Notes: generated from the sequence alone by a model not told the origin. Positions 3,222 through 63,146 are shown, counted from the first letter of the stretch. The stretch is DNA of 64,000 nt from a virus (IMGVR_UViG_3300038300_000071:96001-160000); one strand, 5' to 3'. Made by a program: numbers and translations.

Positions 3222-5060
3222 ATGTCCAATGATCCTTTAATAAATTTAGCAGAGTCTTTTTTATCTGGTAATAATGAAAGCGTAGTTGACATTATAACTT
3301 TTGTTGAGGCTCCTTGGGGTCTCAATTTTAAGTTATTCCCAGCTCAAAAGTTTATGCTTAAGTGTTATTATGGATTGCCTCTGGATGGTAGGATTAAAAA
3401 CATTGAAGTTCCAGATGTTGTAAATGATAGAATATTATTTACATTCACTGAGGTGGAATTCTTACAGTGGCTGTATGAAGAGGGAAGGTGCAATACAAAC
3501 ATAGTTGAAGGAAAGATTTTCCGAGAGCTTATATTGGTAATTGGGCGTAGATCTGGAAAATCAACGATTGCCTCATGTATTTCTAATTATGAAATGTATA
3601 AGCTGATAAAGCGTGGTGATCCTTCAGCATACTACAGTTTTCCTCCAGACTCTCAAGTTGCCATATTGAATGTGGCTCCAACAGACCCGCAAGCTGGTGT
3701 TGTTTTTGGAATGATTAGAGGTATGACGTCTAGATGTAATTACCTTCAGAATCGTGTTTTAAATTCAACTCAGAATTATTTCAATATTTCTACAGATACT
3801 GATTTAAAGTCAGTTGGCAAGAAGAAAGCTTCAATAATATCAATGGCTGGCGGTTGTTCTTCAAACTCTCTTCGTGGACGTAATAGTATCGTCGTAATTA
3901 TGGATGAATTTGCATTCTTTATTGACAATGGCGGACGTTTTGCAGGAAGTGAGGTTTATAAAGCTCTCACGCCATCCACGGCTTCATTTAAGCGTGACGG
4001 CAAGGTTATTGTTATATCATCGCCGTATGCGAAGTATGGAGCCTTCTGGGATAGATATAATGAGTCGTTTGATGAGGAAGAAAGTACTCTTATGTTTAAG
4101 ATGTATACTCCAATGGTAAATCCGACAATTGATAAGTCTATATTAAAGGCTGAGAGGAAGAGAGATAAGATTGGGTTTATCGGGGAATATGGGGCGGAGT
4201 TTTCAGACTCTGTTGTAGCTTGGATAGATGATGAAGATGTCTTCAAGTCTTGCATTCCGAGTACGAAAGTGATAAATGCCAAGGGTAGAGAAGATGTGGT
4301 TTACAATAAAGTAGGGCCTGAAAGAGGAGTTACTGGGGTAAGATATTATGCTGGTATCGATTTGGGCTTAAAAAATGATGGAACTGCAATTTCAATTGTT
4401 CACAGGGAAGGAAAGAAAATAATTTTAGATTACGCTAAAGTTTGGTATTCTGGATCTTCTGATGTTTGGGATTTTCAAAACAGTATATATAAAGATTGTG
4501 GCGAGTTTAAAGATGATGAATATTTAAAGATAAGAGACATAATAAAAGAAATAAAAGAGATAAATAAGCTTTTCCCAGTCTATCAAGGTTTTTTTGACCA
4601 GCATAATGGCGCAGCTTTGATGGAAATGTTACATGAAGATGGATTAACTCAGTTTGAGATGGAGCATGTTTCAGATACAAGCGCAAGTAAAATATATAAT
4701 TTGGCAAAAACTCTCTATCAGGATCAGTTGTTGGAGCTGTTCTATGATCCAGTGTTAATTCCAGAGCTTTTATCTTTAGAGGCTGAAAAGAGATCTAAAC
4801 AGAAGATTATTGTCAGAGGACAAACTAAGAAAGGCGCACACGATGATGTTAGCGATGCCTATATAAGGGCCGTGTGGGCTTGCTATCAAGATTCCAAGGA
4901 TAAGAGTGCGAATGTTGCAACTAATAGATTTGGAGTGGTTCGCAAGCCATCTGTGGGTGCAAAGGGAGCATCTGTAAATACTTTTGCTCTTAATAAAGAA
5001 AAAGCCCATGGAGCACATCCAAGGCTTGGAAGTGTTAGATCGAGAAAGGGAAGAAGATGA
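3222..5060 (+). CDS. terL: Terminase large subunit
   Basis: Walker A GRRSGKS, Walker B IVVIMDE, coupling motif ISSP, RNase H-like GIDLG, FDQ and HDDVSDA. Confidence 0.93.
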   Translation: MSNDPLINLAESFLSGNNESVVDIITFVEAPWGLNFKLFPAQKFMLKCYYGLPLDGRIKNIEVPDVVNDRILFTFTEVEFLQWLYEEGRCNTNIVEGKIFRELILVIGRRSGKSTIASCISNYEMYKLIKRGDPSAYYSFPPDSQVAILNVAPTDPQAGVVFGMIRGMTSRCNYLQNRVLNSTQNYFNISTDTDLKSVGKKKASIISMAGGCSSNSLRGRNSIVVIMDEFAFFIDNGGRFAGSEVYKALTPSTASFKRDGKVIVISSPYAKYGAFWDRYNESFDEEESTLMFKMYTPMVNPTIDKSILKAERKRDKIGFIGEYGAEFSDSVVAWIDDEDVFKSCIPSTKVINAKGREDVVYNKVGPERGVTGVRYYAGIDLGLKNDGTAISIVHREGKKIILDYAKVWYSGSSDVWDFQNSIYKDCGEFKDDEYLKIRDIIKEIKEINKLFPVYQGFFDQHNGAALMEMLHEDGLTQFEMEHVSDTSASKIYNLAKTLYQDQLLELFYDPVLIPELLSLEAEKRSKQKIIVRGQTKKGAHDDVSDAYIRAVWACYQDSKDKSANVATNRFGVVRKPSVGAKGASVNTFALNKEKAHGAHPRLGSVRSRKGRR

Positions 5061-6625
5061 AAAAGAAAAATTCAAAAGGGCCAATGACCAAAGAAGAAAG
5101 GAAGAGAAGGACTAAAAAGATTAAATCCGTTAGGCATTTGGCTCAAAACATACATAAGCTTAGAAGTGCGGTAAGAACGGATTTAAGATCTGACGATGAG
5201 AAGAAAAGACTTACTGCTTTGGCTGTTGCTTTGATGGATAAGACGGCAGAGCGCGTTGGAAATGAAGCGTCTGCAAGAGATAATGGTCATTTCGGAGTAA
5301 CTGGATTTAGAAATAATCATATTGAGGTCAACGGCAATAATGTAAAAATAGACTATGTCGGAAAGTCAGGAGTTAAGCAGAGTAAATCTTTCAGTGATAA
5401 AGCGATTGCTGATGCTGTAAAGAAATGCAAGGGAAATTGCAAGAGCGGGAATGACAATGTTCTGACAACATCGGATGGATTTAGAGTAAGGGCAGACAGA
5501 GTTAATAGATATTTAGAGAGATTTGATATTACTGCAAAAGATATCAGAGGATATTCTGCAAATAAGATGATGCATGATTATCTTACCAAAGTAAAGAAGC
5601 CTAGTACTCCAGAAGAAAGAAAAAAAGTTTTTTTAGAGGGTTTGGCAAAAGTATCAGAAAGAGTAGGACATGGGAAGAATACCCTTAGATTGCATTATTT
5701 GTTGCCGAAAATAGAAAAATCATACATAAACAGTGGTAAAGTTATGAATATAAAGAAAGCCTATGATGAAAGGCAAAATGCAGAGGTTCAGAATATACTG
5801 GAAGATGTATATCCAGAAACGGCTCAGACTTTATTGCTAAAAAATGCAATGGACTACTGGGATACGACGAGGAATTATCCGAATGGGGATTGGAAGGGAG
5901 CGGAGAAATTTTATTTTTGGTTGGCTGTAATGAATGATACGGCGGCATTGGAAATTTCACATAAGGATAGTTACCCTTCATCTCTGCAAGATTCGAATGG
6001 AAGTGCTTGGAGAGTTTTAGTTCCGCATGAAGATGCGGACAGAAAAGCAATTGTTTTAGATATAAATAGCATCAAGCATGATGGCGTTAGTACTTTAGGG
6101 ACTCAAATATACTCAACAAATGATATTGACTTGTCTGAGTTGAATTGGATTAGTAGCGGAGACCATTGGACAAGATCTATACTGTGGCTTATAGAAGAAG
6201 CTAAAATGCTATCGGAAAACGGGGAAGATTTGTCAAAAGTTATTAATGGGTATAATCTAAGGTTAGAAATAGTTAGCTTAATGCATACTATTAGATTGGA
6301 GTTGACGGTTGAGATGAAAGAGATTTATAAAGCTATGACGGGAGTTGAGTTGACGCTGCCCAATGTAACGATAGCTTTGAATGATTGGAATTTTACTCCA
6401 GAGTCGGTTGCATCATTGATGTATCCTTCTGGGTGTCTGAAGTGGGCAGTCGTAACGGTATCTCCAAAGGCGTTTAAGCATGGAATGGAATATGTTAGAT
6501 ATGTTATAATGCACGAATTAATTCATTTGGCAGTAGGCGAAGGCGATAAAGATGGCCATGGGCACGGTGCTAAATTTAATATGTTAGCAGAGTCTATGGG
6601 TCTTCCTAAACAATTTAGAGATTAA
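5057..6625 (+). CDS. Type IB topoisomerase catalytic core fused to a C-terminal SprT/YgjP/WLM-like zinc metalloprotease
   Basis: ERVGNE, GKSG, TAKDIRGYSAN and GHGKNTLRLHY (R,K,R,H,Y pentad, H-to-Y spacing 9 as in poxvirus TopIB); C-terminal IMHELIH...HGHGAKF. Confidence 0.85.
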   Translation: MKKKNSKGPMTKEERKRRTKKIKSVRHLAQNIHKLRSAVRTDLRSDDEKKRLTALAVALMDKTAERVGNEASARDNGHFGVTGFRNNHIEVNGNNVKIDYVGKSGVKQSKSFSDKAIADAVKKCKGNCKSGNDNVLTTSDGFRVRADRVNRYLERFDITAKDIRGYSANKMMHDYLTKVKKPSTPEERKKVFLEGLAKVSERVGHGKNTLRLHYLLPKIEKSYINSGKVMNIKKAYDERQNAEVQNILEDVYPETAQTLLLKNAMDYWDTTRNYPNGDWKGAEKFYFWLAVMNDTAALEISHKDSYPSSLQDSNGSAWRVLVPHEDADRKAIVLDINSIKHDGVSTLGTQIYSTNDIDLSELNWISSGDHWTRSILWLIEEAKMLSENGEDLSKVINGYNLRLEIVSLMHTIRLELTVEMKEIYKAMTGVELTLPNVTIALNDWNFTPESVASLMYPSGCLKWAVVTVSPKAFKHGMEYVRYVIMHELIHLAVGEGDKDGHGHGAKFNMLAESMGLPKQFRD

Positions 6626-7157: not shown

Positions 7158-9118
7158 TGTCAGACGACAAAATAAAGAGAAGACCTATAACTGCCTCTGA
7201 TATTGGCGTTCCTATACCCGGTGATCCAAACTATACAAGCCACAAGGGCGGAATAGCAAGGCCAGCGGTAACTAGTGGTCAAGCAGATCCAGTAAAGGGA
7301 GCTCAGGCAAGAAAAGTCAACAAGTCTCTTACAGCTGGCGGTGGGGTAAAGACTGCCGGAATGATGATTGATAATGTTCCTAATATGAATACAAGCTATA
7401 GCACAAGATACTTGGACGCTTATAGAACTTCTTATGCTTCTGGTGGTGATGACAGGGGTGGAACTTATGATGTTCCAACATACTTTGTTGAAATGAATGA
7501 TAAGAATGGCGGCGTTATATATTGGCCAACAACATTAAGAGAGAAATACTCTTGGTATAGATATTTTTACAGAACTGATGCATATGTTGGCAGAGCTTTA
7601 GATTTATTGACAGACTTGCCTATGTCTAAGTTGACCTTAAATATGCCGAAAGCAAAGGGAATGACAAAGAAGCAAAAAGAAGAGATTAATAATTTCTACG
7701 ATCATATGATGGAGAGATTAGGACTTTTTGACGTTTTGAGGTCATCGTTGTTTGAAGTAAATTGTATAGGAAACTCTTTTTTGTTTCATGAGTGGGATGA
7801 TAAAATGAAGATGTGGTCGAGCATTCAAATGCTACCTCCTGAGGAAGTTTCAGTTTTCCAGTTTCCATTTTCAGATAAGAAGCGCATAGAGTATAGGCCT
7901 GAAAGATTGATAGGGTTGATTAAGCAGCACGATAGTGACAATGGCGAAGAAGGGGGTTTTAACTATTCTGACAGTAGTTCTGACAGCTCTTTGTCAAGTG
8001 ACATTGTTGACTTGATTCCAGAAGACATAAAGAATATGATAAACGAAAGCGGAGCAATTATGATGGATTCAGATCCTATGAGTGGATCTTTCACCTATCA
8101 CATGACAAGAAAAAGAGCTCCTTATTTAGAGCTTGGCGCTTCGCTTTTAGAAAGAATTTTAGTTCCTTTACTTCAGAAGGAAAACTATAGATATACTCAG
8201 TTGAGTTTAGCAAATAGAAATATGACGCCTAAAAATTTAATAGTTGCTCCAAACCTAACAGGTGAAGAGTTGGAAGATTTGCGTTTGCAGGTTGACTTAT
8301 CATATTTAGATCCTGACTATTCAATCATTACAAACTATGAGGTTGATTGGAGTCAAATAGGCGCAGATCAGAGGTTGCTTGATTTGAGTAAAGAATACGA
8401 AACTATTGATAATCAAATTTTTTCCGCACTTGGAGTTACAAGAGAGTTGTTGACTGGTGAGGGAGCTTTTGGCGGAAACAAGATAACAGTTGAAATTTTA
8501 AATACAATGTTCTTACATTCTAGACAAATGTTGATTGACTACGTAGAACAGCAGTTGTTTAAGCCAGTGGCAGAGGCTAATGGTTGGTATTCAACGGATT
8601 CAAATGGCATTAAGAATTATTGGTATCCAAGAGTTGGATTTAACAGATTGACTATTCGTGACAACTCTGAAGTGTTTGACTCGTTGTTCCAGTTGTATCA
8701 GAAGGGTAGCCTTCCTGTGGATGTTATTTATGAATTATTTAACTTGGATGCTGATTCATTGAGTGAAAAGCTTGAAGAGCAGTTGTTTACGGTTAAGGAT
8801 GCTACATTCAACAGATTGCTTGAAGAGGCTAATTTAGAAGTGGGAAGAAATCTAATAGATAGGTCAAATATAGTAGAGAAGGTGACAAAATATTTAAATT
8901 TAGATTACAAAGAACCGGATGAAGGTGGAGATGTTGAAGGCGGGGAAGATGGCTTTGGCGGTGGCTTTGAAGATGAAGCAGAGGGGCCACAAGCCCTTCC
9001 TGATGATATTGTAGATGGAGTGGCAGACATATCCATAGATGAAGGTAATTTAGGGCCAGACTCAACAGATCAGGAAATTGAAGAGGCCGTACAAGAAGGG
9101 ATTAACAAGACATCATGA
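7157..9118 (+). CDS. Portal protein
   Basis: YRYFYRTDAYVGRALDLLTDLPMS, IFSALGVTRELLTGEG and LFKPVAEANG; size and position downstream of TerL. Confidence 0.85.
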   Translation: MSDDKIKRRPITASDIGVPIPGDPNYTSHKGGIARPAVTSGQADPVKGAQARKVNKSLTAGGGVKTAGMMIDNVPNMNTSYSTRYLDAYRTSYASGGDDRGGTYDVPTYFVEMNDKNGGVIYWPTTLREKYSWYRYFYRTDAYVGRALDLLTDLPMSKLTLNMPKAKGMTKKQKEEINNFYDHMMERLGLFDVLRSSLFEVNCIGNSFLFHEWDDKMKMWSSIQMLPPEEVSVFQFPFSDKKRIEYRPERLIGLIKQHDSDNGEEGGFNYSDSSSDSSLSSDIVDLIPEDIKNMINESGAIMMDSDPMSGSFTYHMTRKRAPYLELGASLLERILVPLLQKENYRYTQLSLANRNMTPKNLIVAPNLTGEELEDLRLQVDLSYLDPDYSIITNYEVDWSQIGADQRLLDLSKEYETIDNQIFSALGVTRELLTGEGAFGGNKITVEILNTMFLHSRQMLIDYVEQQLFKPVAEANGWYSTDSNGIKNYWYPRVGFNRLTIRDNSEVFDSLFQLYQKGSLPVDVIYELFNLDADSLSEKLEEQLFTVKDATFNRLLEEANLEVGRNLIDRSNIVEKVTKYLNLDYKEPDEGGDVEGGEDGFGGGFEDEAEGPQALPDDIVDGVADISIDEGNLGPDSTDQEIEEAVQEGINKTS

Positions 9119-12100
9119 ATTGGGAAGAATTGGCAATTAAAGCGGAATTTAAGGAACTTATCAAGATTGCAGGGGAAGAATCGTTCTCGGAAGAGGATAA
9201 GCAGGCAATTATTGAAAGGGTTAAAGAGAAGTTGAGGGATCATGGCGTTAGCAACGTCCATGCTGAAAATCTTATTCTAGAGGGAGATTCGGACGGAGAT
9301 GGTGATGCCGAATTGGTCGCCAGTGCTAGTTCTAAGATTGCGGCTAGTATTATTGCTGAAGAAAATACCCTGTCCGATCTTGGTCTTACGAAAGATACCG
9401 AAATAACATCTGACAATATTGATCAGATTATGGATTATTTTAAAGGGCAAGCTAAAGAAGAAGATTCTGCCGATGAAATAATTAAATCTCTTGATGGTGT
9501 TTTCGATAGGATAAAATTGCTTGTAGACTCGCTTGGTGGTGAGAGCAAGGGAGTTGATGATGAGGAATTGGCGGGAAATGACAAGAAGAAAGAAGCTTCT
9601 TTGAAATGTGCTGAAAAAAATATCTTATCAGATTTTATTGTAGATGAGTTGGTGAAGTATGCCAAGAGATTTGAATATCAGTCAGAGTTGGACAAGTATC
9701 TTAGAGATCATCCAGATGCCGATAGATTGGATCATAGCTATGATAAGAAGGGAGAGTCTGGGAAGGGAAGGCCTAGAAATTCTAAGCTTTGGCCTACTAA
9801 AAACCAGATGGAGACTTATTTAGACAATCATCCAAAAGCTGACAAATCAAAGCATCAGTATAAGAAAGATGACAAAGGCAACGGCCATCCTGATGTTTCA
9901 AAAGTGGATCAGGGAGGAGGTTCTGGCGAAGAAAAGAGAAGAACTCCAGCAGAAAAAGAGAAGGAGTTTTACAAGGATAATCCAGAATTGGATGGGCCAG
10001 ATCTTGAAATACTTACTCCAGAGCAGCAGAAAGAAAAGGAAGACGCTAGGCCAATTTCTGAAAGTCCTGAAAAGCAGAAAGAAATAAGAGATAAGATAGA
10101 AGAGGTAAAGGAAAAGATAGAGGCTGAGAAGTCTGGAGAAAAGCCCTCTGATGGATTGGAAGATTCTCATATTGAAAAGGATACTCCTCATTGGTTTAAT
10201 GAGAATGAGAATATAGATCCTTTGAATAATGTTCAGATGGAAAAAAAAGGATTTGAGAAAGGGTTTTCAGATTTAATGGATGAAGATGTCTTTTATGATG
10301 TTAGAACCGGAAAGGCTCATAAATTTTCAGATCTTCCAAAGAAAGTTAGAGAAAAGCTTGCAGAAAAAGCCAGCACGGGAGAGCTTTGGCACTCACAGCC
10401 TTCTAATAATAGAAAGAATAAGCTCAAACTTAAGGAGACTGCGCCTTTGACCGAGGGCGACAAAGATAAAGGACTTAAGGAAAATTCAAATGATTTATTT
10501 AGCGACAAGGTAAACAAATCAAAGAAAGACTTTTCTAAAGAGATTGTTAAGAATGAAAAAGAAATAAGAGATACGATGGTCGATGAAGGAAAAGTCATCG
10601 GAGATCTGTTTAATAAATTTAGGGAAAAGAGAAATCAGGAAATTCTTGATAACAGTGAAAATCCTGAAAGTGATGTTTTGTTTGATAAGAATGATGAAGC
10701 TTATCATTTTGAAAAGCCTCAAGCTGAATCTGACAAAGGAATGCTGCCTTCTTCTCGCAAGCCTGAGAGGAATGATTCTGTGATGATGAAAAGTCAAAAG
10801 GGGAAAGGGCCAGCTTGGAATGTTGAAAAAATAGAAGGAGATACTGCCTTTTTGAGGAATGAAAAAACTGACAAGGTAATGCAGTCTCCTTTGAATCAAT
10901 TGGAGTTTAGCGATAATAGCAAGTCTGTCAAGAAAAAAGACACTAAAGATAAGCCTCTTGACAAAAAGAAAATGACAATGAAGGATTTCTTAGAGAATGT
11001 TCCAAATGAAGAGGCTCTTACGGATAGGGAAAGAAAGATTGTAGAGAAGATGTTTGACGTTCCTGAGAAGGAATCTCCCAAGAAGGAATCTCCTAAGAAG
11101 GAATCTCCTAAAAAGGAATCTCCTAAGAAGGAAGTGGTTGAAAAGACTACTGATAAGATAGTTCCTAAAAAAGAAGATTCTAATGAACCTGGAACGTCTA
11201 GAGAAGATGTGTTTAAAACTCTTGGATTTAAGCAATTTACTAATAAAAATATTGGCGAGAAATCAAGGGGCTATAGTCCTGACAAGGTTAAGGGAGCTAT
11301 AACATCGATTTATAGAAATATATTAAACTCAAGGCCAGTCCATCCTCCTACAATAGGGAAATTAACTAAGAAGGAGTTGGAAAAAACCATGGATATGTTG
11401 GGAATATCCCATGAGGATCTTGGCACTACTTCTAATTCATCCGTGGGTGACATTGCGAAGGGAGTTGTGAAGGAAGTCAGTGATATGACGCCTGCTTATG
11501 GAGAGGAGAGTGTATCTCGTAGAAATACAAGATATAGTCCAAGCAGCAAGAGAGAAGAGCCTAAGAAAGATGTAGCTGAAAAAAATACAGATAAGATAGA
11601 CCCTTCTCAAAAGGATAATTCCGATGAAAAGCCTCCCGCAGAGAGTAACAGACGAGTTAAACCTAAGCCTTCTGCACGTCTTCAGAAGATTGGAGATGGA
11701 GATTATCAGCATGAGGGAAAGTATTCCCAAAGAATCCAAAAGAGTGGTGGTGGGTATTCTGTTTCCACCAAAGATGGAAACAAGATTTTGCCAGCGATGA
11801 GTTTTAAGAATTTGGCTGGAGTTCGCAGTTGGATAGGATCTGTTAATCAGGGTGATATAGTTTTTGATGGTAAGTCTTGGCAGGATAAGACTCCTGAGAA
11901 AGATTTAGTTGAAAAGGTTACAGACAAGATAGTTCCTAAAAAGGAAGCTCCTAAGAAGGATGTAGTTGAAAAGGTTACAGACAAGATAGTTCCTAAAAAG
12001 GAAGCTCCTAAGAAAGAATCTCCTAAGAAGAAGGATGATTCGTTTAAGGATTTTGAAGAAACGTTAGATCCAAAAACTGTTTCTAAAATAGTAGATGCGT

Positions 12101-15100
12101 ATGGAGACGGAGTAAATAATCATATCACCGATTATTTAGATTCTAATAATATAAAATTAGATAAAAAGCAGCAAGATGCGCTGTGGCACAGGGTGGATGC
12201 TCTGGGAATGGAAGAAGTTGGATCTGGAAGTTACAATGAGCAAAGTTCATTGGATAGAATTGAAGGAAGGCTTCCATCTATAATGGATGCTATAACCAAT
12301 CCTAAGAAAGAAACTCCTAAGAAAGAAACTCCTAAAAAAGATGTAGTTGAAAAGATCACAGACAAAATAGCTCCTAAGAAGGTGTCTCCTGAAAATACAG
12401 TTACTAAGGTTGATGCTCCTAAGGGAGAAGTACCCAAGTTAGATCCTAACAAAGAGCCTAAGGGCGGCCCTAGACAGACTTTCCATTTTGGAAACAAGGA
12501 GTGGGATATAGATCAAGGGCTTAGATATGTAGAAGAGAAAGGATTGAAGCCAGAGTCTGTAAAGACTGACGACCTTAAAGGTTATCTTGGAATTGTCAAA
12601 GTGGATCAGGACTATGCTTCGAAGTTAACAAACAAAGAGCCATTGTTGGCGATTACAAGTGAAGATGGAAGCATGGTTGTTGATGGTTATCATAGAATTC
12701 AAAAGGCGGTAAACGATGGTGTGGAGAATTTAGATGTTGTTTTCCTTAATGATAAGCAGTCTAAGGATATAGAAATACCAGATCATGCTGGAGCGCGTTC
12801 TAAAGCTCATAATGATTTCTACAAGAAAAAAAGGCCTTCTAAGAAAGTAGCTCCTAAGAAAGAAGATTCTAAGAAAGAAGATTCTAAAAAGACAGTTACC
12901 AAGAAAGAAGTTTCTGAGAAGAAATCTCCTGAGAAGGGTGAAATTAGCGTTAGTCACAAAGATAAGAAATTCGATGATACAACTATTAATATTAGCAAGT
13001 ATGAGTCTCCTAATGGGAAAATTGAAATATTCAATAACAGTCCTTGGGCTGGTGGAAGGGATTCAATCACTGAGACAACGGTAAATAAGGACTTTAGAAG
13101 AAATGGAGAGGGATCAAGAATTCTCAAGAAAGCATTGGAGGGGAGGACTCAAGTTTCTGCTCAAACATCCAGCAAGGGTTCAACAACTTTCTTTTATAAC
13201 AATGGGTTTAGACCAGTTGAAAAGCCTGACGCATCTCTCAAAGAGACGGTGGAGATGTTTAATGAGAATCAATCTCTGGGAATGGAGTGGAATGCCAAGA
13301 AGGAAACTCCTAAGAAGGATGTAGTCGAAAAGGTTACAGACAAGATAGTTCCTAAAAAGGAAGCTCCTAAGAAAGAGACTCCTAAGAAAGAGACTCCTAA
13401 GAAAGAGACTCCTAAGAAAGAGACTCCTAAAAAGGAAGCTCCTAAAAAGGAAGCTCCTAAGAAAGAGACTCCTAAGAAAGAGACTCCTAAAGTGGAAGAT
13501 CTTAAAAAGCGCAGGGAGGAGTTACACTATCTTAATGATATTGCTGAAAAGAAAATAAGAGACTTTGATGGTGAAAAGAAACAAAATGGTCAATATAGAA
13601 AGCAATACCAGATGGATCTTGACAATTTAAAGGAACAGTCAGAATCTTATAAGAGAACAATAGATAGAATAAATGATGGTATTGATAAGGAGTCTCAGCC
13701 TAAAAAAGATGTAGTTGAAAAGATTACAGATAGGATAGCTCCTAAGAAGGAATCTCCTAAGAAGGAAGAGTCGGCAGGCGGTACTATGGTGAAGAAGTTT
13801 AATGACATGCAGAATGCCAGCAAGGCTATTGCTGATCACGCCAATGCCAAGATGATGCATGATGGGGCTAAGAAGAAGCATGACGATTATTCAGTGTCGA
13901 AGACAAAAGACGGAAAAGTCGTAAAGAAGTCTCAAAAGATTAAAGACGATCTTAAGAAAGATTTAGATGTTCGAAGAAAGAAGATGGACGATTTGGATAA
14001 AAGCATACCTGCTGAGTTTAAAGGTAAGACATTGTCGGATATGAGCAAGATGACTGGCGATCTTTATACTAAAATAAAGAAAGGGCCTTCCAAATCAGTA
14101 GCTCCTAAGTCAGTAGCTCCTAAGAAAGTATCTCCTAAGAAAGAGACTACCAAGAGTGAATCTGGGAAGCATTATGATTCATTAAAATCTATGGGAACCT
14201 CGGCTGAGCGTAGGAAGTATGTTAAGGATCAAATGTCGGATAAATCTTTATCTAAAAGCGATCAAGCAAAAATACATGAAGATTATAGTAAATTAATGAA
14301 AGATGAAAAGGATGACTTTTCAGATCAGTTGATGGTTAGTCAGGGCGATGCAGCTAAGACCAAAAAGATAATGGATCACATATCTAAAACCAGAGGAGAT
14401 GTTTTTGCAGAAGGCGTAGAGAAGATGGTTGATAAGAAAAAGAAAGAAGCTCCTAAGAAAGTAGCTCCTAAGAAGGTAGAGCCTAAAAAAGAAGCTCCTA
14501 AAAAAGATGTAGTTGAAAAGATTACAGATAAGATAGCTCCTAAGGCGGTAGAGCCTAAAAGAGAAGCTCCTAAGACGGTAACTCCTAAGAAAGAAGCTCC
14601 TAAGAAAGAAGCTCCTAAAAAAGAAGCTCCTAAAAAAGAAGCTCCTAAGAAAGTAGAGCCTAGGAAGGTAGAGCCTAAGAAGGTAGAGCCTAAAAAAGTA
14701 GAGCCTAAAAAAGAAGCTCCTAAGAAGGTAGAGCCTAAAAAAGAGACTCCTAAAAAAGATTTAGTTGAAAAGGTTACAGACAAGATAGCTCCCAAGGAAG
14801 AATCTGGGAAGCATTATAACTCATTAAAGTCTATGGGAACCTCGACTGAGCGTAGGAAGTACATCACGGATCAAATGTCGGATAAATCTTTATCTAAAGC
14901 GGATAAGAAAAACATACATGAAGACTATAAAAAATTAATGAAAGATGAAAAAGATGACTTCTCGCAGCAGTTGATGGTTAGTCAGGGCGATAAAGCTAAG
15001 ACTAAAAAGATAATGGATCACATGTCTAAAACTAGAGGCCAGTCTTTTGCAGAAGGCGTAGAGAGTATGGTGGAGAAAAGAATGAAGGATGGAGAAGAGG

Positions 15101-15504
15101 GAAAGCTCGTCAAGAAGATAATGGACAGTCAGGGAGATGATGACAAGATCAATAAGATCATGGATGAAATCATTGAAACTAAAGGCGAAGATTTCGCAGA
15201 CGGAATTGGAGATATGGTTAAGAATAATAAGGGAAAGATTCCTGTTAGGGAAAAAGCTGAAGCCACAGCAGCGGATTTAAATGAAATAGAAGCGGCTGCG
15301 TTTCTTGAAGGAATGACTGATAGATTAGTCGAGGCTGTAAAAGATAGAGATCTTATGAGAGACACTGGTGGGCAAAGCAAAATGAGAGACAGAGAGCCTC
15401 ACAATAAGCCTCCAAGAGATGATTGCAAAAGCAGGTATAGAAATAAAAGATTGACTCCTGATGAAAGAGATAGGGATACCGATAACGATAAAGATTTAAA
15501 TTAA
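9115..15504 (+). CDS. Giant Lys/Glu-rich modular (polyvalent) protein with ParB/Srx-like and GNAT-like domains; probable internal head protein
   Basis: 2129 aa; VVDGYHR (~12676) ParB/Srx motif; FRRNGEGSRIL...FFYNNGF (~13093) GNAT; many (S/T/A)PKKE repeats; two YLxxHPxAD..H motifs. Confidence 0.75.
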   Translation: MNWEELAIKAEFKELIKIAGEESFSEEDKQAIIERVKEKLRDHGVSNVHAENLILEGDSDGDGDAELVASASSKIAASIIAEENTLSDLGLTKDTEITSDNIDQIMDYFKGQAKEEDSADEIIKSLDGVFDRIKLLVDSLGGESKGVDDEELAGNDKKKEASLKCAEKNILSDFIVDELVKYAKRFEYQSELDKYLRDHPDADRLDHSYDKKGESGKGRPRNSKLWPTKNQMETYLDNHPKADKSKHQYKKDDKGNGHPDVSKVDQGGGSGEEKRRTPAEKEKEFYKDNPELDGPDLEILTPEQQKEKEDARPISESPEKQKEIRDKIEEVKEKIEAEKSGEKPSDGLEDSHIEKDTPHWFNENENIDPLNNVQMEKKGFEKGFSDLMDEDVFYDVRTGKAHKFSDLPKKVREKLAEKASTGELWHSQPSNNRKNKLKLKETAPLTEGDKDKGLKENSNDLFSDKVNKSKKDFSKEIVKNEKEIRDTMVDEGKVIGDLFNKFREKRNQEILDNSENPESDVLFDKNDEAYHFEKPQAESDKGMLPSSRKPERNDSVMMKSQKGKGPAWNVEKIEGDTAFLRNEKTDKVMQSPLNQLEFSDNSKSVKKKDTKDKPLDKKKMTMKDFLENVPNEEALTDRERKIVEKMFDVPEKESPKKESPKKESPKKESPKKEVVEKTTDKIVPKKEDSNEPGTSREDVFKTLGFKQFTNKNIGEKSRGYSPDKVKGAITSIYRNILNSRPVHPPTIGKLTKKELEKTMDMLGISHEDLGTTSNSSVGDIAKGVVKEVSDMTPAYGEESVSRRNTRYSPSSKREEPKKDVAEKNTDKIDPSQKDNSDEKPPAESNRRVKPKPSARLQKIGDGDYQHEGKYSQRIQKSGGGYSVSTKDGNKILPAMSFKNLAGVRSWIGSVNQGDIVFDGKSWQDKTPEKDLVEKVTDKIVPKKEAPKKDVVEKVTDKIVPKKEAPKKESPKKKDDSFKDFEETLDPKTVSKIVDAYGDGVNNHITDYLDSNNIKLDKKQQDALWHRVDALGMEEVGSGSYNEQSSLDRIEGRLPSIMDAITNPKKETPKKETPKKDVVEKITDKIAPKKVSPENTVTKVDAPKGEVPKLDPNKEPKGGPRQTFHFGNKEWDIDQGLRYVEEKGLKPESVKTDDLKGYLGIVKVDQDYASKLTNKEPLLAITSEDGSMVVDGYHRIQKAVNDGVENLDVVFLNDKQSKDIEIPDHAGARSKAHNDFYKKKRPSKKVAPKKEDSKKEDSKKTVTKKEVSEKKSPEKGEISVSHKDKKFDDTTINISKYESPNGKIEIFNNSPWAGGRDSITETTVNKDFRRNGEGSRILKKALEGRTQVSAQTSSKGSTTFFYNNGFRPVEKPDASLKETVEMFNENQSLGMEWNAKKETPKKDVVEKVTDKIVPKKEAPKKETPKKETPKKETPKKETPKKEAPKKEAPKKETPKKETPKVEDLKKRREELHYLNDIAEKKIRDFDGEKKQNGQYRKQYQMDLDNLKEQSESYKRTIDRINDGIDKESQPKKDVVEKITDRIAPKKESPKKEESAGGTMVKKFNDMQNASKAIADHANAKMMHDGAKKKHDDYSVSKTKDGKVVKKSQKIKDDLKKDLDVRRKKMDDLDKSIPAEFKGKTLSDMSKMTGDLYTKIKKGPSKSVAPKSVAPKKVSPKKETTKSESGKHYDSLKSMGTSAERRKYVKDQMSDKSLSKSDQAKIHEDYSKLMKDEKDDFSDQLMVSQGDAAKTKKIMDHISKTRGDVFAEGVEKMVDKKKKEAPKKVAPKKVEPKKEAPKKDVVEKITDKIAPKAVEPKREAPKTVTPKKEAPKKEAPKKEAPKKEAPKKVEPRKVEPKKVEPKKVEPKKEAPKKVEPKKETPKKDLVEKVTDKIAPKEESGKHYNSLKSMGTSTERRKYITDQMSDKSLSKADKKNIHEDYKKLMKDEKDDFSQQLMVSQGDKAKTKKIMDHMSKTRGQSFAEGVESMVEKRMKDGEEGKLVKKIMDSQGDDDKINKIMDEIIETKGEDFADGIGDMVKNNKGKIPVREKAEATAADLNEIEAAAFLEGMTDRLVEAVKDRDLMRDTGGQSKMRDREPHNKPPRDDCKSRYRNKRLTPDERDRDTDNDKDLN
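11062..14800 (+). repeat. Dispersed in-frame repeats: 15-bp PKKE(S/T/A) units and nine PKKDVVEKVTDKI(V/A)PK linkers
   Basis: Linkers start near 11122, 11560, 11893, 11950, 12331, 13309, 13699, 14497 and 14749; a 47-nt string is identical at 11911, 11968 and 13327; tandem cctaagaaagagact at ~13366-13490. Confidence 0.95.
14158..15072 (+). repeat. Internal ~90-aa domain duplication within the giant protein
   Basis: ESGKHY(D/N)SLKSMGTS.ERRKY...FAEGVE.MV at ~14158-14430 and ~14800-15072, with a partial third copy after it. Confidence 0.9.
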
Positions 15505-15518
15505 AGGGGTTAATATTA

Positions 15519-15773
15519 ATGGATAATAAAAAGGTAGAGAAAATGGCAAACAAAATAGCTGGAGCTGATGATCCTCTTGTGAGCGTTGATCAGGCAATTA
15601 ATAGCATTATAGAAAGTATATATGTTATGGATAAGAATTTATCAAAGATAGAAATAAACAGTCCAGAAGAGAAAGCTGCTGTTGATAAGATACAAAATTT
15701 ATTAGATACAGCCATAGCGCCATATATGGCTGATGTAGCTAAGGAGTACTTGACGTTCGAAGATGATGAATAA
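15519..15773 (+). CDS. Hypothetical protein
   Basis: 84-aa ORF; N-terminus KVEKMANKIAG. Confidence 0.7.
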   Translation: MDNKKVEKMANKIAGADDPLVSVDQAINSIIESIYVMDKNLSKIEINSPEEKAAVDKIQNLLDTAIAPYMADVAKEYLTFEDDE

Positions 15774-15780
15774 ATAAAAA

Positions 15781-15800
15781 TTTTATATTTCATCGTTTAT
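15781..15800 (+). promoter_or_regulatory. Candidate phage late promoter motif TTTTATATT-N6-TTTAT
   Basis: Same motif at 23298, 24808 and 31214; partial at 19882 and 33594; all intergenic and upstream of genes in the structural module. Confidence 0.5.
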
Positions 15801-15824
15801 GAAAGAACCTCATGGAGAAAAATA

Positions 15825-16277
15825 ATGGCAAGTGATAAATATACAATTATACATACAGAGATTGAATTTAATCAATACTCACCTTCCCATAGTGGGCAGA
15901 CAATGTATACACCGGGTAAGGCTAGTAGTAAGTCGTTAGACCAAAACTGGCCGACAGATTTTATAATTCCTACGGGAACACCAGCGGTTGATAGTCAAGT
16001 AGATCCTACTAAAGGGCAGACAAGAGCGAGAGTTTTTGTCAGAGGTGGAATGACTGGAGTGGTGTCTGGAATGGATCAAAGACAAATTGATTCTGACAAT
16101 GAGTTAGTAAGCATGACAGGATTGGCTGTCCCTATTCTTGGGATTATTGGTGATGATAGAAGTGGTAGTACTGCGTCGTCTCCAACTGGAGTATATGATG
16201 ATCCAGGTATGCCAACTCAGGATAACAGTGGCGTTAATGAAAGGCAAACAGGGTACAATGGTATAGTTTTACCATAA
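15825..16277 (+). CDS. Hypothetical (probable virion) protein
   Basis: SD GGAG; Gly/Thr/Pro-rich 150 aa. Confidence 0.7.
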   Translation: MASDKYTIIHTEIEFNQYSPSHSGQTMYTPGKASSKSLDQNWPTDFIIPTGTPAVDSQVDPTKGQTRARVFVRGGMTGVVSGMDQRQIDSDNELVSMTGLAVPILGIIGDDRSGSTASSPTGVYDDPGMPTQDNSGVNERQTGYNGIVLP

Positions 16278-16286
16278 GGAAGCTAA

Positions 16287-16793
16287 ATGAGTGATTGTGG
16301 CGAATTAGGAAGTGGTGAGAGTGGGAATTCTGCAGCACGTAATGACTGTAAGGAGACTGAGTCTGAAAAGATAGAGGTTTGTTCCAATGCTACCGAGTCG
16401 GAGAATATGATTGAGAGAATAATCAATTATGTTCCTTTGGAAAAGGATGTCACTTTAATAATGGCTCAAGAGAGTTTCCCTTATCCTGAATTGGGAAAAA
16501 CTGCTAGGCCCGCCGGACAAGGATGCAGAACTTGCGTTCATAAGACCTACTGTGAGGCGTTTTATTGGTTTGTAAGAAGAGATGTTATTTTTTCCGACTC
16601 TCATGTCGGATTGGCTTGCCTCTCTTGGTCGGAGAATCCAGATGACAATGTTCAGTTTGGAAATAAGTATGATATTAATGAGAATACAAGAAGGAATATA
16701 CCAAGTCCTACTTCTCCTATAACGGAGCAGGCTGACCTTGGATATAAGAGTAGTCAATTTAATGACTTAGGAAACGGGCCTTCAGCTCCATAA
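16287..16793 (+). CDS. Cys-rich hypothetical protein
   Basis: CRTCVHKTYC...ACLSW metal-binding-like motif. Confidence 0.7.
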   Translation: MSDCGELGSGESGNSAARNDCKETESEKIEVCSNATESENMIERIINYVPLEKDVTLIMAQESFPYPELGKTARPAGQGCRTCVHKTYCEAFYWFVRRDVIFSDSHVGLACLSWSENPDDNVQFGNKYDINENTRRNIPSPTSPITEQADLGYKSSQFNDLGNGPSAP

Positions 16794-16806
16794 AGGGAAA
16801 ATATAA

Positions 16807-17247
16807 ATGCCAAGAGATTTAAAAGCACCTAGTAAAGACGTAAGCGATAGCTTGCAAGTTTTTAGCAGTAGGAAGAAGTTAGAAGATTTTATTAAGGAGC
16901 AGTATGAAAAAGCTCCTAGAAGAAAGCCAACAAGGGCCAAAGCTTCCAAGGGGAAGAGAGGTACATTGTTTGCAAAAAGAAATAAAAATTTAGCAATAAG
17001 AGAGGCAGCTTTAAGAAAGTCACAGATTGTGATTACTTATAGGAAAACAACGACAGGCGAAACCAATCAATATGTGGTTGCGCCTTATGAGTTTGCCTTT
17101 AAGAGACTTAAGGTGGGAGCAAGGAAGATCCTTTGGGCCTACGATATGAAAGATAAAAGAATAAAGAATTTTGCAGTTAGAAATATTTCAAAAGTTGCAA
17201 TTACGGATAGAAAATTTACGCCGAAATGGCCGATTAAAATAAGCTAG
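16807..17247 (+). CDS. Stand-alone WYL-domain protein
   Basis: IREAA...IVITYRK..GET..YVVAPYE...LWAYD...IKNFAVRNISKV..TDRKF. Confidence 0.75.
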   Translation: MPRDLKAPSKDVSDSLQVFSSRKKLEDFIKEQYEKAPRRKPTRAKASKGKRGTLFAKRNKNLAIREAALRKSQIVITYRKTTTGETNQYVVAPYEFAFKRLKVGARKILWAYDMKDKRIKNFAVRNISKVAITDRKFTPKWPIKIS

Positions 17248-17256
17248 GAGTATGAG

Positions 17257-17733
17257 ATGAAAAGAAGAGGTAGTTATTGGTCAGGAATTTATGGCGGCAT
17301 GATAGAGCGCTTTGAAAAGGGTATGATTGTGGAGCCTGTTGTTGTAAGCAGAAGAGGGTTCTACGGAACGGTGACGGAAGTAAACACGGCTGAAAATAAA
17401 GTTTATGTCGCATGGGGAAATGGAGCTATATCTCAAGAAGATCCAGATATGATTATGCCTTCTGACTTAAATTCAGCAAAAACAAGAAGAGAGTCTTTGC
17501 CAAAAGTTCTAGATAATAAATATAGAACAGTAGCTAAGGAACTTGAATCTAAAGATTGGGAATATAACCCATGGGCAGTTTGTCACACTACAGTTGATAA
17601 AGATAAGAATCCTAAGAAGTTCGAGGATTGCGTCAAGGGCGTAAAAGAACAGCAGGCTTCTAGAAGATCAGTCTATAGTTCGGACAACGGTAAAGTTTAT
17701 CAGAAGACTGTAAAGGGTATAATGAAGAAATGA
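17257..17733 (+). CDS. Hypothetical protein with SH3-like N-terminal barrel
   Basis: FEKGMIV...GTVTEV...KVYVAW; C-terminal NPWAVC...FEDCV. Confidence 0.65.
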   Translation: MKRRGSYWSGIYGGMIERFEKGMIVEPVVVSRRGFYGTVTEVNTAENKVYVAWGNGAISQEDPDMIMPSDLNSAKTRRESLPKVLDNKYRTVAKELESKDWEYNPWAVCHTTVDKDKNPKKFEDCVKGVKEQQASRRSVYSSDNGKVYQKTVKGIMKK

Positions 17734-17945
17734 ATATTGCTGAAGAAATAGCCAAAATAGCTGAGCTTATAGCCGAGGCTCATGAATTGATTGCTTACAA
17801 GCAGTTTAGAAAGAAAAAGATAAAGCAAAAGAGTAAAGATAAAACTAAAGCTAAAAAGAAATATCTTGAGACTAAAGTGAAAACGCAAAAGAAGCAAAAG
17901 AAATACCGTCATAGATGGAAAGAGCAGTTGAAGGGTAGGAAGTAG
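17730..17945 (+). CDS. Small basic protein
   Basis: ATGA overlap; N-terminal MNIAEEIAKIAELIA followed by a Lys-rich tail. Confidence 0.7.
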   Translation: MNIAEEIAKIAELIAEAHELIAYKQFRKKKIKQKSKDKTKAKKKYLETKVKTQKKQKKYRHRWKEQLKGRK

Positions 17946-18710: not shown

Positions 18711-19709
18711 ATGGAAAGACGTTGCAAAACTGAAAATTGCCTGATAAGGGCAAAAGGAAGAAAGAGTTTCGGTGTAGATTTTTCACATGCAACATTGATG
18801 AAAAATCCGAAACAGGAATGGAGTGGATTGAGTAGAAATAAAATTAAAGTTGCTCATGACAGAAAGTTAAATGTAGATTGGGAAAATTTTAACAATGACA
18901 ATTACCTATTCACCCATGCTACAATTGTTGCATCTGTAGACACAGACGGAACACATCAAATTAAAGCACCATGTAATGGGCTTATTAATAATAATGGTAA
19001 TGCTTGGACGAATGAAGTTATGTTAGCAACATTCAGATCGTTCGTTGGTGGAGAAAATTACTACGAGCATGTTCAAATACCAGAGTTGTCAAAGGGTAAG
19101 ATTCTAGACGCTGTAATAAAGCCTGTTAAGTATGCATCTGAAACTGGTGAACTGGCAGATGTTTATTATGTAGACATACTAGTAGCAACAAACAGAAGAC
19201 ATGACGATCTTGTAAGAAGAATCGGCAATGGAGAGTTATCCACAATGTCTATGGGATGTATTGCAAATGTATGTACATGTTCTAAATGCGGAAAAGAGTT
19301 AAAAGATAATGATAGAAACTGTCATCATTTAGATAATCAAATGAGACAAGAGTATACTGACTTTCAAGGAAACAGAAGAGTGGTTGCAGAACTATGTGGA
19401 AGAACTTACATAGATCCAATTACTAAAAAGAAAGTTGGTGATCCAGAGTCTGTTCAATTTATTGAAGCCAGTTGGGTTGAGAAACCAGCATTTAGAGGAG
19501 CAGTAATTAATCATTATGTTTCTGATGTTTCTAAAGTGGCTAAAGACATTATCGGATTCAGCGATAGAAAGCTTGAAGAAGTTGTAGAAGACCTATTTAA
19601 AATAAGAGTTGCTAATCAAGATGCAATGATTGCTTTAAGAGTTGCCCATGAAGAATTGCAGAGACGCAAGTGGGAAGCAATGGTAAACAACGTTACTAGA
19701 GAGTTCTAA
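18711..19709 (+). CDS. Prohead (capsid maturation) protease with zinc ribbon
   Basis: NNNGNAW, YYEH..SKGKILDA, IGNGELSTMSMGC, CTCSKCG..CHH and FIEASWV..PA; position before scaffold and MCP. Confidence 0.8.
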   Translation: MERRCKTENCLIRAKGRKSFGVDFSHATLMKNPKQEWSGLSRNKIKVAHDRKLNVDWENFNNDNYLFTHATIVASVDTDGTHQIKAPCNGLINNNGNAWTNEVMLATFRSFVGGENYYEHVQIPELSKGKILDAVIKPVKYASETGELADVYYVDILVATNRRHDDLVRRIGNGELSTMSMGCIANVCTCSKCGKELKDNDRNCHHLDNQMRQEYTDFQGNRRVVAELCGRTYIDPITKKKVGDPESVQFIEASWVEKPAFRGAVINHYVSDVSKVAKDIIGFSDRKLEEVVEDLFKIRVANQDAMIALRVAHEELQRRKWEAMVNNVTREF

Positions 19710-62144: not shown

Positions 62145-63146
62145 ATGTCAAATAGAATTATAATTACAGATATTATGCGCGGAGGTAAAGAGGTTCCTGT
62201 CTCAGAAATAAAGCAGATGATTGGAAGAGGCGGGAGAAATCAAAACGAAGAAGTTGCATATGCAGATATAGTGTTGGAAAATGATAGTATTGAGTATATA
62301 AAGGAGAAGATAGATTCGGATAAGGATTTGTTGGTAAATTCTCAAATAAATACGATTGATGAGCTTTCATTTCATATAGTTGCAGATATTGAAAATGGTT
62401 TTATTAGAAACGTCAAAGATGTAGAAGAATGGTATTCGAGGAGCTTTAGTTGCTTTCAGGGTGAAAAGTTAAATTTGAATCATTTGTTGGATTTTCTAGT
62501 GGGAATAGGAGCTATAAAATTAAATGGTAATAAAATTGCAAACACTAATTTGGGAAGAATAGCTGCTAAGTTTTATTTTACTCCTAATGTCGTTTATAGT
62601 TGGAAGAAAAACTTCACGCTGCTGTTTGAGCAAGGAAGGCAGTTCGATGATATTTCAACGGTATGGGCTATGGCAGATGTCCCTGTTCAAAAGTCATGGT
62701 ATAATGTTAAGAATGATCTAGGAATAATATCTGATTTTAAGTCAAGCGTTGATGCTGCTGGTTTTGAGTGGAAGTATTCAAACAACGTAAGTGCTTTTCC
62801 ATATTGGACTTTAATAGGAGGCCCAAGGATAAAACCTGCAGGGGGAGTAACGGGAGATCTTAAAAAGAACTATGGACGAATGCACCAAGCATTAATGCAT
62901 TTAGATAAATACTGCGCTAAATGGGGAATGGCTGATTTCTTTGAAGAGTTAAATCTTAGAGTTAAATATCAAGCAAGTGCAGAGTTAGTAAATTTGTGTA
63001 AAATTGAAGGAATAGGAAAAAAATTAGCGGAATGGCTATATAGTATTGACATACATGACATTGATGATATTAGAGAAAATGCGGACAGTATTATTATGAT
63101 GAGCGACTATGAACTTAAAGATTTAATAGAGAAGATAGTAAAATGA
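62145..63146 (+). CDS. Ski2/Hel308-like helicase, C-terminal part (motif VI, winged helix, ratchet, HhH)
   Basis: QMIGRGGR, T.LGRIAAKFY and ELVNLCKIEGIGKKLAEWLY. Confidence 0.85.
   Translation: MSNRIIITDIMRGGKEVPVSEIKQMIGRGGRNQNEEVAYADIVLENDSIEYIKEKIDSDKDLLVNSQINTIDELSFHIVADIENGFIRNVKDVEEWYSRSFSCFQGEKLNLNHLLDFLVGIGAIKLNGNKIANTNLGRIAAKFYFTPNVVYSWKKNFTLLFEQGRQFDDISTVWAMADVPVQKSWYNVKNDLGIISDFKSSVDAAGFEWKYSNNVSAFPYWTLIGGPRIKPAGGVTGDLKKNYGRMHQALMHLDKYCAKWGMADFFEELNLRVKYQASAELVNLCKIEGIGKKLAEWLYSIDIHDIDDIRENADSIIMMSDYELKDLIEKIVK

Follow-up and report, generated by a model that had tools for sequence, protein, structure and literature searches.

A linker-strung modular gene beside the portal of a huge phage probably encodes a fast-evolving cargo protein of the head gene block

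The window analyzed here is a stretch of 64,000 nucleotides (nt) from a virus record in IMG/VR (IMGVR_UViG_3300038300_000071, positions 96001-160000). The record as a whole is 202 kb long, with an estimated completeness of 62%, and belongs to a phage of about 300 kb with a GC content of 38%. The long open reading frames (ORFs) of the window all lie on the + strand. One of them, which we call the modular gene, follows the portal gene directly: its ATG overlaps the portal stop codon, starting 4 nt inside the end of the portal gene. It is a single uninterrupted ORF (9115-15504, +; 6390 nt) for a protein of 2129 amino acids (aa), named P0001. An earlier note on this DNA had described a cassette-like polyprotein at 11062-15072, an interval that does hold the linkers but is only the linker-bearing part of the longer ORF.

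The inferred protein begins with a linker-free region, continues as a series of modules separated by copies of the linker P-K-K-D-(V/L)-V-E-K-x-T-D-K-I-x-P, and ends in a charged segment that we call the handle. We found nine copies of the linker, starting at aa 671, 817, 928, 947, 1074, 1400, 1530, 1796, and 1880, together with the runs of PKKE that the earlier note had seen beside them. The elements are listed below, with their identity to the corresponding parts of two close relatives, L029 and L030.

9115..11055 (+), N-terminal region (aa 1-647), linker-free; 64-66% identical to L029 and L030
11122..11166 (+), linker copy 1 (PKKEVVEKTTDKIVP), preceded by an array of four SPKKE units at 11061-11133
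11167..11538 (+), module A (aa 685-808), an orphan found in this genome only; L029 and L030 have an unrelated module, X1, here
11560..11604 (+), linker copy 2, degenerate (PKKDVAEKNTDKIDP)
11605..11895 (+), module B (aa 831-927), a small beta + alpha domain; 75% identical to L030, deleted in L029
11893..11994 (+), linker copies 3 and 4, in tandem with a 57-nt period and with a 52-nt exact run in common
12040..12294 (+), module C (aa 976-1060), a predicted three-helix bundle; 75-77% identical to L029 and L030
12331..12375 (+), linker copy 5
12463..12834 (+), module D (aa 1117-1240), a modeled ParB/Srx fold with a DGYHR motif
12946..13311 (+), module E (aa 1278-1399), a small putative GNAT acetyltransferase domain; absent from L029
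13309..13353 (+), linker copy 6, with exact runs of 50 nt in common with copy 4 and 47 nt with copy 3; a TPKKE/APKKE array follows at 13364-13490
13501..13701 (+), module F (aa 1463-1529), short and probably helical; this genome only
13699..13743 (+), linker copy 7
13777..14115 (+), module G (aa 1555-1667), a basic orphan; 69% identical to L029
14149..14427 (+), module H1 (aa 1679-1771), first duplicate copy
14497..14541 (+), linker copy 8, within a 15-nt array at 14440-14759
14749..14793 (+), linker copy 9
14794..15069 (+), module H2 (aa 1894-1985), second duplicate copy; L029 has a single H
15340..15501 (+), C-terminal handle (VKDRDLMRDTGG...KPPRDD...DxDxD), the sole element common to all clade members

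The linkers make up 26% of aa 649-2129 and carry small positive net charges. Around them are three arrays of 15-nt units that encode SPKKE, TPKKE, APKKE, and EPKKV (the last array, at 14440-14759, has up to 21.5 units), as well as a 57-nt tandem repeat at 11891-12017. An AlphaFold 2 (AF2) single-sequence model of aa 648-1100 predicted the linkers to be coil (confidence score pLDDT 28-47), with pLDDT values of about 72 for module B and about 70 for module C, whereas module A was not confidently folded.

Apart from H1 and H2, the modules, of which there are at least nine, show no similarity to one another, and no paralogs of them were found elsewhere in the 202-kb record. About seven are orphans of 65-125 aa. 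Searches of Pfam and PHROG gave no match for modules A, B, C, F, G, and H, for the N-terminal region, or for two modules of L029, Y and Z, that are introduced below. A structure search with module C returned generic three-helix matches only (Z < 8), and the model of module A was too poor to use. Module B and module Z may resemble YegP/DUF1508 repeats, a likeness that Pfam did not confirm.

Folds could be assigned to the remaining two modules, D and E, in keeping with the ParB/Srx-like and GNAT-like domains that had been proposed at these positions. Module D is, by its model, a ParB/Srx fold. It gave a profile match to the ParB/Srx-fold protein SbnI (E 9e-7), its AF2 model had a pLDDT of 89, and its top 12 Foldseek matches were all ParB, Noc, sulfiredoxin, SbnI, or SerK proteins (probability 0.80-1.0, with E values of only about 0.02); among solved structures, its closest relatives are SbnI and free serine kinase. 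Module D has about 60 homologs, mostly stand-alone proteins of 105-170 aa, and the D, G, H, and R of D-G-x-H-R are invariant or nearly so across 43 homologs. One homolog, P0125 (365 aa), has the same small ParB-like family fused to a glycoside hydrolase 19 (chitinase/lysozyme-like) domain.

Module E is, judged from its sequence, a GNAT domain. The window copy itself falls below the Pfam threshold (Acetyltransf_10, E 0.005, 17.2 bits against a cut-off of 23.6), but it contains RRNGEGS, which fits GNAT motif A (R/Q-x-x-G-x-G/A), and two homologs, the solo protein P0122 (165 aa, 70% identical) and P0123 (40%), reach the Pfam GNAT cut-off. P0122 stops at the exact residue at which module E meets its linker, and it carries no linker of its own; a search for its locus in IMG/VR found none. 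Relatives of module E also occur within proteins of 1463-3881 aa, among them P0129 (1647 aa), which has the Pfam domain LPD1, "large polyvalent protein-associated domain 1."

The duplication of module H, reported previously, spans 300 nt (14147-14446 and 14789-15088, 85% identical in nucleotides and 82% in amino acids) and contains a module of 93 aa. A 223-aa fragment from another sample, P0272, is 96% identical to aa ~1907-2129 of the window protein, and its single visible H module blends residues typical of H1 and of H2, which hints either at conversion between the duplicates or at the state before duplication.

We compared the modular gene with its counterparts in the two close relatives, L029 and L030, whose portals are about 90% identical to that of the window. 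The gene of L029 lies at 11953-17871 of its locus and has eight linker copies; that of L030 (JAAHTG010000035.1) is present for its first 950 aa only, with two linker copies. The module strings are as follows.

Window: N-term, A, B, C, D, E, F, G, H1, H2, C-term
L029: N-term, X1, (B deleted), F', C, D, G, Y, X1, Z, X1, H, C-term
L030: N-term, X1, B, C, ...

Modules C, D, G, and H and the C-terminus are held in common with the relatives and are collinear, and shared modules are 59-84% identical. Private to the window are A, E, F, and the H duplicate; absent from it are X1 (three copies; common to L029 and L030) and F', Y, and Z (L029 only). The cassette-like idea passed the test that the earlier note had proposed, an alignment of orthologs: module content differs, and 11 of 12 ends of homology blocks, as drawn from ungapped, unmasked BLAST, lie within 8 aa of a linker, against a random expectation of 0.373 per end (P ~1.5e-4). 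Copies 2 and 3 of X1 in L029 are nearly identical in DNA, and their identity starts in the last codons of the preceding linker, one of the linkers before them having shrunk to ...EKISP; the duplication of H in the window likewise starts at a linker-module border. Cassette-like turnover at the linkers is thus directly visible among these phages. It was anticipated that modules would be gained, lost, and shuffled in this way; duplication, loss, and different content were all seen, but the shared modules of the window, L029, and L030 showed no reordering. The earlier note's reading is supported in part.

Two peculiarities of the relatives should be mentioned. The L030 contig stops within a linker (...PKKDVVEKI; locus end 14796-14798), and L029 has an in-frame TGA at 15247-15249 where the window has TGG (~12490, the Trp of GNKEWDIDQG in the ParB-like module), which splits its gene into frames of 1098 and 865 aa. 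This codon may be a nonsense mutation, may be read through, or may stem from a sequencing error. Since assemblers break at the linker repeats, as in L030, the copy numbers of the PKKEx arrays should be read with caution. The same contig end, together with the fact that the sequences used all come from short-read metagenome assemblies, raises the question of whether repeated linkers gave rise to collapsed or chimeric joins and hence to an artificial architecture. We regard this as very improbable: the frame is open for 6390 nt; L029, L030, and P0272, from independent assemblies, repeat the architecture, the linker, and the collinear modules; and the longest exact repeat, 52 nt, is below the length of usual reads and final k-mers.

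The modular gene lies within a block of head genes. Before it come the large terminase, a topoisomerase fusion, and the portal, in that order; after it come small ORFs, the prohead protease, a pair of acidic scaffold-like ORFs, and a capsid protein of the HK97 type. The neighbors referred to in the text are these.

5057-6625, fusion of a topoisomerase IB core (Pfam E 4e-29) with an SprT-like zinc peptidase motif, lying between the terminase and portal genes; 85% identical in L029
7157..9118 (+), portal gene (PHROG portal match, E 5e-21), the anchor for finding relatives
15519-15773, conserved 84-aa ORF directly after the modular gene
16807-17247, WYL-domain protein (Pfam E 1e-6), within the head gene block
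18711..19709 (+), prohead maturation protease (phrog_18299, E 7e-12), about 3 kb downstream of the modular gene

The 84-aa ORF has an N-terminus (MDNKKVEKMANKIAG / KKVEKMANKIAG) that resembles the core of the linker, and its homologs in L004, L019, and L029 retain a similar N-terminal helix (MANKIA or MVDRVA). Because only "MANKIA" is kept in the relatives, the likeness is unproven and could reflect either a common signal or coincidence.

Between the window and L029 the flanking genes are 80-92% identical, whereas the shared parts of the modular gene are 59-78% identical, and it follows that the modular gene evolves faster than its neighbors, in sequence as well as in content. This bears on the idea that the protein is a structural one, an inner-body, scaffold, or histone-like component of the head core or a DNA-condensing protein, whose modules are packing elements and not effectors. 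Its location among scaffold and protease genes, its composition (17.8% Lys, net charge +33), and the lack of a recognizable enzyme fold in most modules would all suit such a role. Yet phages with 90-92% identity in portal and protease carry different sets of modules, and the post-portal slot ranges from 77 to 2132 aa among the relatives described below, which makes a size-determining structural role hard to reconcile with the data. Enzyme domains are present besides: ParB/Srx and GNAT in the window and a Zeta-toxin kinase in the relative L023. We therefore consider a purely structural protein quite improbable.

What, then, is the linker? The earlier note had called it a DNA-conserved one and had pointed to three copies identical over 47 nt. 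Exact runs of 52, 50, and 47 nt indeed join the copies at 11911, 11968, and 13327. Among the nine linkers of the window, codons for the same residue were identical in a proportion of 0.754, against 0.505 expected from codon usage (standard deviation 0.034), and, because this value tops the maximum of 500 simulations (0.671), the DNA identity exceeds chance. In L029, however, pairs of linkers have a median of 10 and a maximum of 23 identical bases, and the share of identical codons (0.557, against 0.482 expected) is within two standard deviations, so that synonymous codons there are nearly random. The window's linkers are homogenized, but since those of L029 are not, identity of the linker DNA is no standing feature of the system, and we read the long identical runs in the window as the trace of recent duplication or gene conversion and not as a maintained recombination site.

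The peptide appears to be another matter. Across 19 linker cores from the three genomes the proportions of synonymous (pS) and nonsynonymous (pN) differences were 0.52 and 0.13, a ratio pN/pS of about 0.26-0.32 that is biased by our having recognized linkers by their peptide; for the L029 linkers alone pS was 0.65 and pN 0.18. As L029 keeps the peptide while its synonymous sites are near saturation, a role at the level of the protein is indicated, and the peptide itself is probably functional. Its job could be spacing, binding, or processing, the candidates being a disordered spacer with S/TPKK-like affinity for DNA, a docking motif, and a protease site.

The last of these candidates leads to an alternative in which the product is a true polyprotein: within the prohead, the prohead protease would cut each linker, for example after (V/L)-V-E, and release about ten small internal proteins with basic tails. 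The T4 protease gp21 cleaves after Glu in (L/I)-x-E, proteases of the phiKZ/SPN3US type cleave after (S/A/G)-x-E, and the prohead protease trims internal proteins destined for the capsid; (V/L)-V-E resembles the P3-P1 pattern of the T4-type enzymes. The conservation of the motif as peptide despite synonymous divergence and the position of the gene in the prohead block near the protease are in keeping with such cutting. However, the pattern [DEK][VIL][VIA]EK occurs in the 202-kb record only in the modular protein and one other ORF (62145-63146) and is absent from the portal, scaffold-like, and capsid proteins and from the small ORFs of the head block; the protease, for which searches of Pfam and of PDB sequences gave no match, cannot be placed in a specificity class on that basis; and the spacers of distant clade members differ and are without the motif. 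We think it unlikely that the protein is processed in this way, although cutting could coexist with the cargo role that we favor.

A second alternative takes the linkers as flexible, DNA-friendly spacers, S/TPKK-containing and histone H1-like, and attributes the turnover to illegitimate recombination and slippage, with selection for breaks between domains and no dedicated joint. The units SPKKE, TPKKE, and APKKE each have a net charge of +1, the modular protein gave a weak Pfam match to the histone H1-like family HC2 (E 0.002), and SPKK is a known minor-groove-binding motif (PMC9903204). This alternative would also account for the L029 linkers, with their lack of long DNA identity, for the use of other low-complexity spacers by distant relatives, and for the solo GNAT protein, which does without a linker. 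It is less easily squared with linker DNA in the window that is homogenized past codon-usage expectation and includes exact repeats of 47-52 nt, with two duplications that begin inside linkers, or with a specific 14-aa motif, more than a composition, that is kept in 19 copies from three genomes. We judge it a serious competitor, if on balance a rather unlikely one. That linker DNA promotes turnover is plausible, with support in the window genome.

We next consider how widely this arrangement is distributed. A search with the portal gave 361 homologs at E <= 1e-20, most of them 50-62% identical and one 90%, from which we assembled portal-anchored relatives at 25 IMG/VR loci and 4 metagenome loci. 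In these loci the post-portal gene encodes <100 to 1260 aa, as against 2129 aa in the window, and its product has in every case a high content of K, P, and E. Two elements recur across the clade, an N-terminal helix region (VKEKL) and the charged C-terminal handle of about 55 aa. Because the cargo between them differs from locus to locus, the post-portal slot is a hypervariable cargo position in this clade. Many portals of the clade are 800-1150 aa long and have intein, Hint, or LAGLIDADG Pfam domains (P0067, P0070, P0080, P0084, P0089, P0096, and P0121), from which we conclude that inteins are common in the portal gene here.

The handle (consensus rG.Q..RKDKDLM.DTGG.SK..r.rEp...KPPR.D…D.D.d) was found at 22 distinct loci, where the frames that contain it range from 77 to 2132 aa. 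It stands alone as a frame of 77-82 aa in L006 (~12600-12830) and L007 (~4885-5130), forms a separate small ORF downstream of a large HD-like cargo protein in L025 and L027, lies at the end of proteins of 246-2132 aa, and is followed by further cargo in L017, L021, and L023. In the last case (L023:13096-16878) that cargo includes a Zeta-toxin/AAA_33 kinase (aa 876-1023, Pfam E 2e-10). Eight loci have a domain of about 600 aa with RRRSLGDHGIRH. Other loci string orphan modules on different spacers (EAKPEG repeats, EEKPEEKP, and P/A/Q-rich runs), the clade's P/K/E/A-rich spacers being lineage-specific in sequence, and an additional member, P0276, has small repeated modules on P/K/E spacers.

The N-terminal region has the VKEKL helix, two YLxxHPxADxxxH motifs, and a WFN...DLP module that is common to distant relatives. 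The same motifs appear again in the post-portal proteins of L009, L013, L016, L019, L022, L023, L025, and L026 and in P0276. The motif YLxxHP(D/K)AD(K/R)xxH, which occurs twice near 9700-9900 (aa ~190-250), is found also in L016, L023, L025, L026, and P0276 and had no family match. When the N-terminal 640 aa were searched against proteins of comparable length, the modular protein itself was the only match.

The VEKxTDKI linker, in contrast to the handle, is confined to the window's own lineage. We found the motif nowhere else in the 202-kb record or in IMG/VR, and GTDB genomes contained no arrays of it. A degenerate linker DNA pattern had 15 single matches in GTDB genomes (Planococcus, Treponema, and others), which we take to be chance because they lie in unrelated proteins or in non-coding DNA. 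The closest cultured phages by portal are the jumbo phages Tunturi_5 (34%) and Bacillus phage G (23%), and their post-portal genes, gp8 of Tunturi_5 and gp15 of phage G, lack the handle. A megablast search with the modular gene and a tblastn search with its C-terminal 90 aa had no match among GenBank phages, and a search of the ESM Atlas with the handle gave no usable match.

Among known systems, the closest kind to the modular protein, and the best fit, is the polyvalent protein (Iyer, Burroughs, Anand, de Souza, and Aravind 2017, PMC5512222). Polyvalent proteins join many unrelated domains, typically 2 to 15 or more globular ones, and are predicted to be packaged and delivered with the DNA; the modular protein has at least nine modules, two of which, the ParB/Srx domain D and the GNAT domain E, belong to catalogued effector-type domains of which solo versions exist, and portal-terminase packaging is a further likeness. 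The ParB-glycoside hydrolase 19 fusion in P0125 echoes the ParB-lysozyme fusions noted for these proteins. The modular protein differs in its unusually small modules, its reiterated conserved linker, and its clade-specific N-terminal region and handle. That survey nowhere uses the word "linker," nor does it describe turnover between near-identical phages.

MuF/SPP1 gp7 toxin fusions (Jamet et al. 2017, PMC5576092) are likewise encoded directly after the portal and combine a conserved part with variable effectors, to which the Zeta-toxin-like kinase of L023 may be compared. Searches of Pfam and PHROG, however, gave no Phage_Mu_F match in the N-terminal 647 aa or elsewhere in the protein. The anchor in the window is mainly C-terminal, with many cargo units on its N-terminal side or internally, in place of a single C-terminal toxin, and no immunity gene was seen for the modular protein.

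The internal proteins of T4 and its Alt protein are also basic, are encoded in the prohead block, and are packaged and injected with the DNA, and they offer a possible model of delivery. They are, however, products of separate small genes with an N-terminal targeting peptide (the capsid-targeting sequence, cut by gp21), and we found no homology to them.

Two further systems resemble the modular gene in how their parts are exchanged. In the gp38 adhesins of T-even phages (Trojet et al. 2011, PMC3157838), short conserved glycine-rich motifs part hypervariable segments, and exchanges take place at or near the motifs, a finding credited also to Tetart et al. (1998, as cited in PMC3157838). The gp38 motifs are the core of one domain with variable loops, however, whereas the linkers of the window are disordered and stand between whole unrelated domains. 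In CdiA and Rhs toxins (Poole et al. 2011, PMC3150448; Zhang et al. 2012, PMC3482391), a VENN or PxxxxDPxGL motif borders replaceable modules, and recombination swaps the cassettes. These proteins have one C-terminal junction with downstream orphan cassettes and immunity genes, in contrast to nine junctions in one ORF; orphan cassettes for the modular protein were not found in the 202 kb.

Finally, the earlier note had likened the linker array to an integron inside an ORF. The likeness goes no further than the notion of exchangeable units lined up in an array, with a repeated site at their borders. The units in the window are translated in one frame, no integrase gene lies nearby, there are no attC-like or cassette-borne sites and no evidence of site-specific recombination, and the analogy thus fails in every defining feature. 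Nor was capture of modules from outside shown, the solo GNAT protein lacking a linker.

Taking these observations together, we propose that the modular gene is probably a fast-evolving "polyvalent" cargo gene of the phage head gene block. Its N-terminal helix region and its handle would recruit the protein to the portal or into the capsid. Between the two ends, small independent domains are strung on disordered, mildly basic PKKEx spacers, each bearing the conserved 14-aa motif (V/L)VEKxTDKIxP. Unequal or homologous recombination between spacers, together with slippage, would account for the observed gain, loss, and exchange of whole modules, and the in-frame repetition of the spacers would let the reading frame survive such changes. 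The modules would then enter the host alongside the DNA and act there as early effectors. Packaging into the head is suggested by gene order and by analogy, an effector role and ejection of the modules are suggested by analogy, and an anti-defense role, as the earlier note had envisaged, is speculation.

Several points weigh against this proposal. The packaging step leans on gene order and analogy, and no MuF domain or other hallmark domain of polyvalent proteins (LPD, MPTase, or vRNAP) was detected by Pfam at E <= 0.1 for the whole protein and E <= 1 for pieces. No cultured relative with the handle was found among GenBank phages. The turnover was seen against just two close relatives, one cut by a contig end and the other with an in-frame TGA, and every sequence is of short-read metagenomic origin. 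As to the part played by the linker, the pN/pS ratio has the bias given above; L029 linkers, with 10-23 identical bases, would be a poor substrate for homologous recombination; and the coincidence of breakpoints with linkers is no proof that the DNA promotes them, because survival of domain-keeping insertions and deletions alone would give the same pattern.

A broader version of the proposal is that this clade of huge phages keeps a self-diversifying effector array beside the portal, in which the handle packages whatever cargo is fused to it and the linker, in at least one lineage, is both a protein signal (a spacer or protease site) and a DNA joint for domain swaps. It would amount to a cassette system internal to one ORF that retunes the injected proteins between near-identical phages. 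We put this forward tentatively, as possible but somewhat less likely than otherwise.

Should the handle prove to direct cargo to the capsid, it would provide a simple and portable rule for what huge phages inject, and the variable middle of these proteins would be a catalog of candidate early effectors, mostly with orphan folds. The stand-alone handles of 77 aa and the 2132-aa version are natural minimal and maximal constructs for work on packaging, and the linker is a candidate for use in engineering, as a joint through which proteins could be loaded into capsids. Linker-bounded turnover at 90% portal identity, meanwhile, is a testable case of how a polyvalent protein is built and rebuilt, a step that the founding survey of these proteins left unaddressed.

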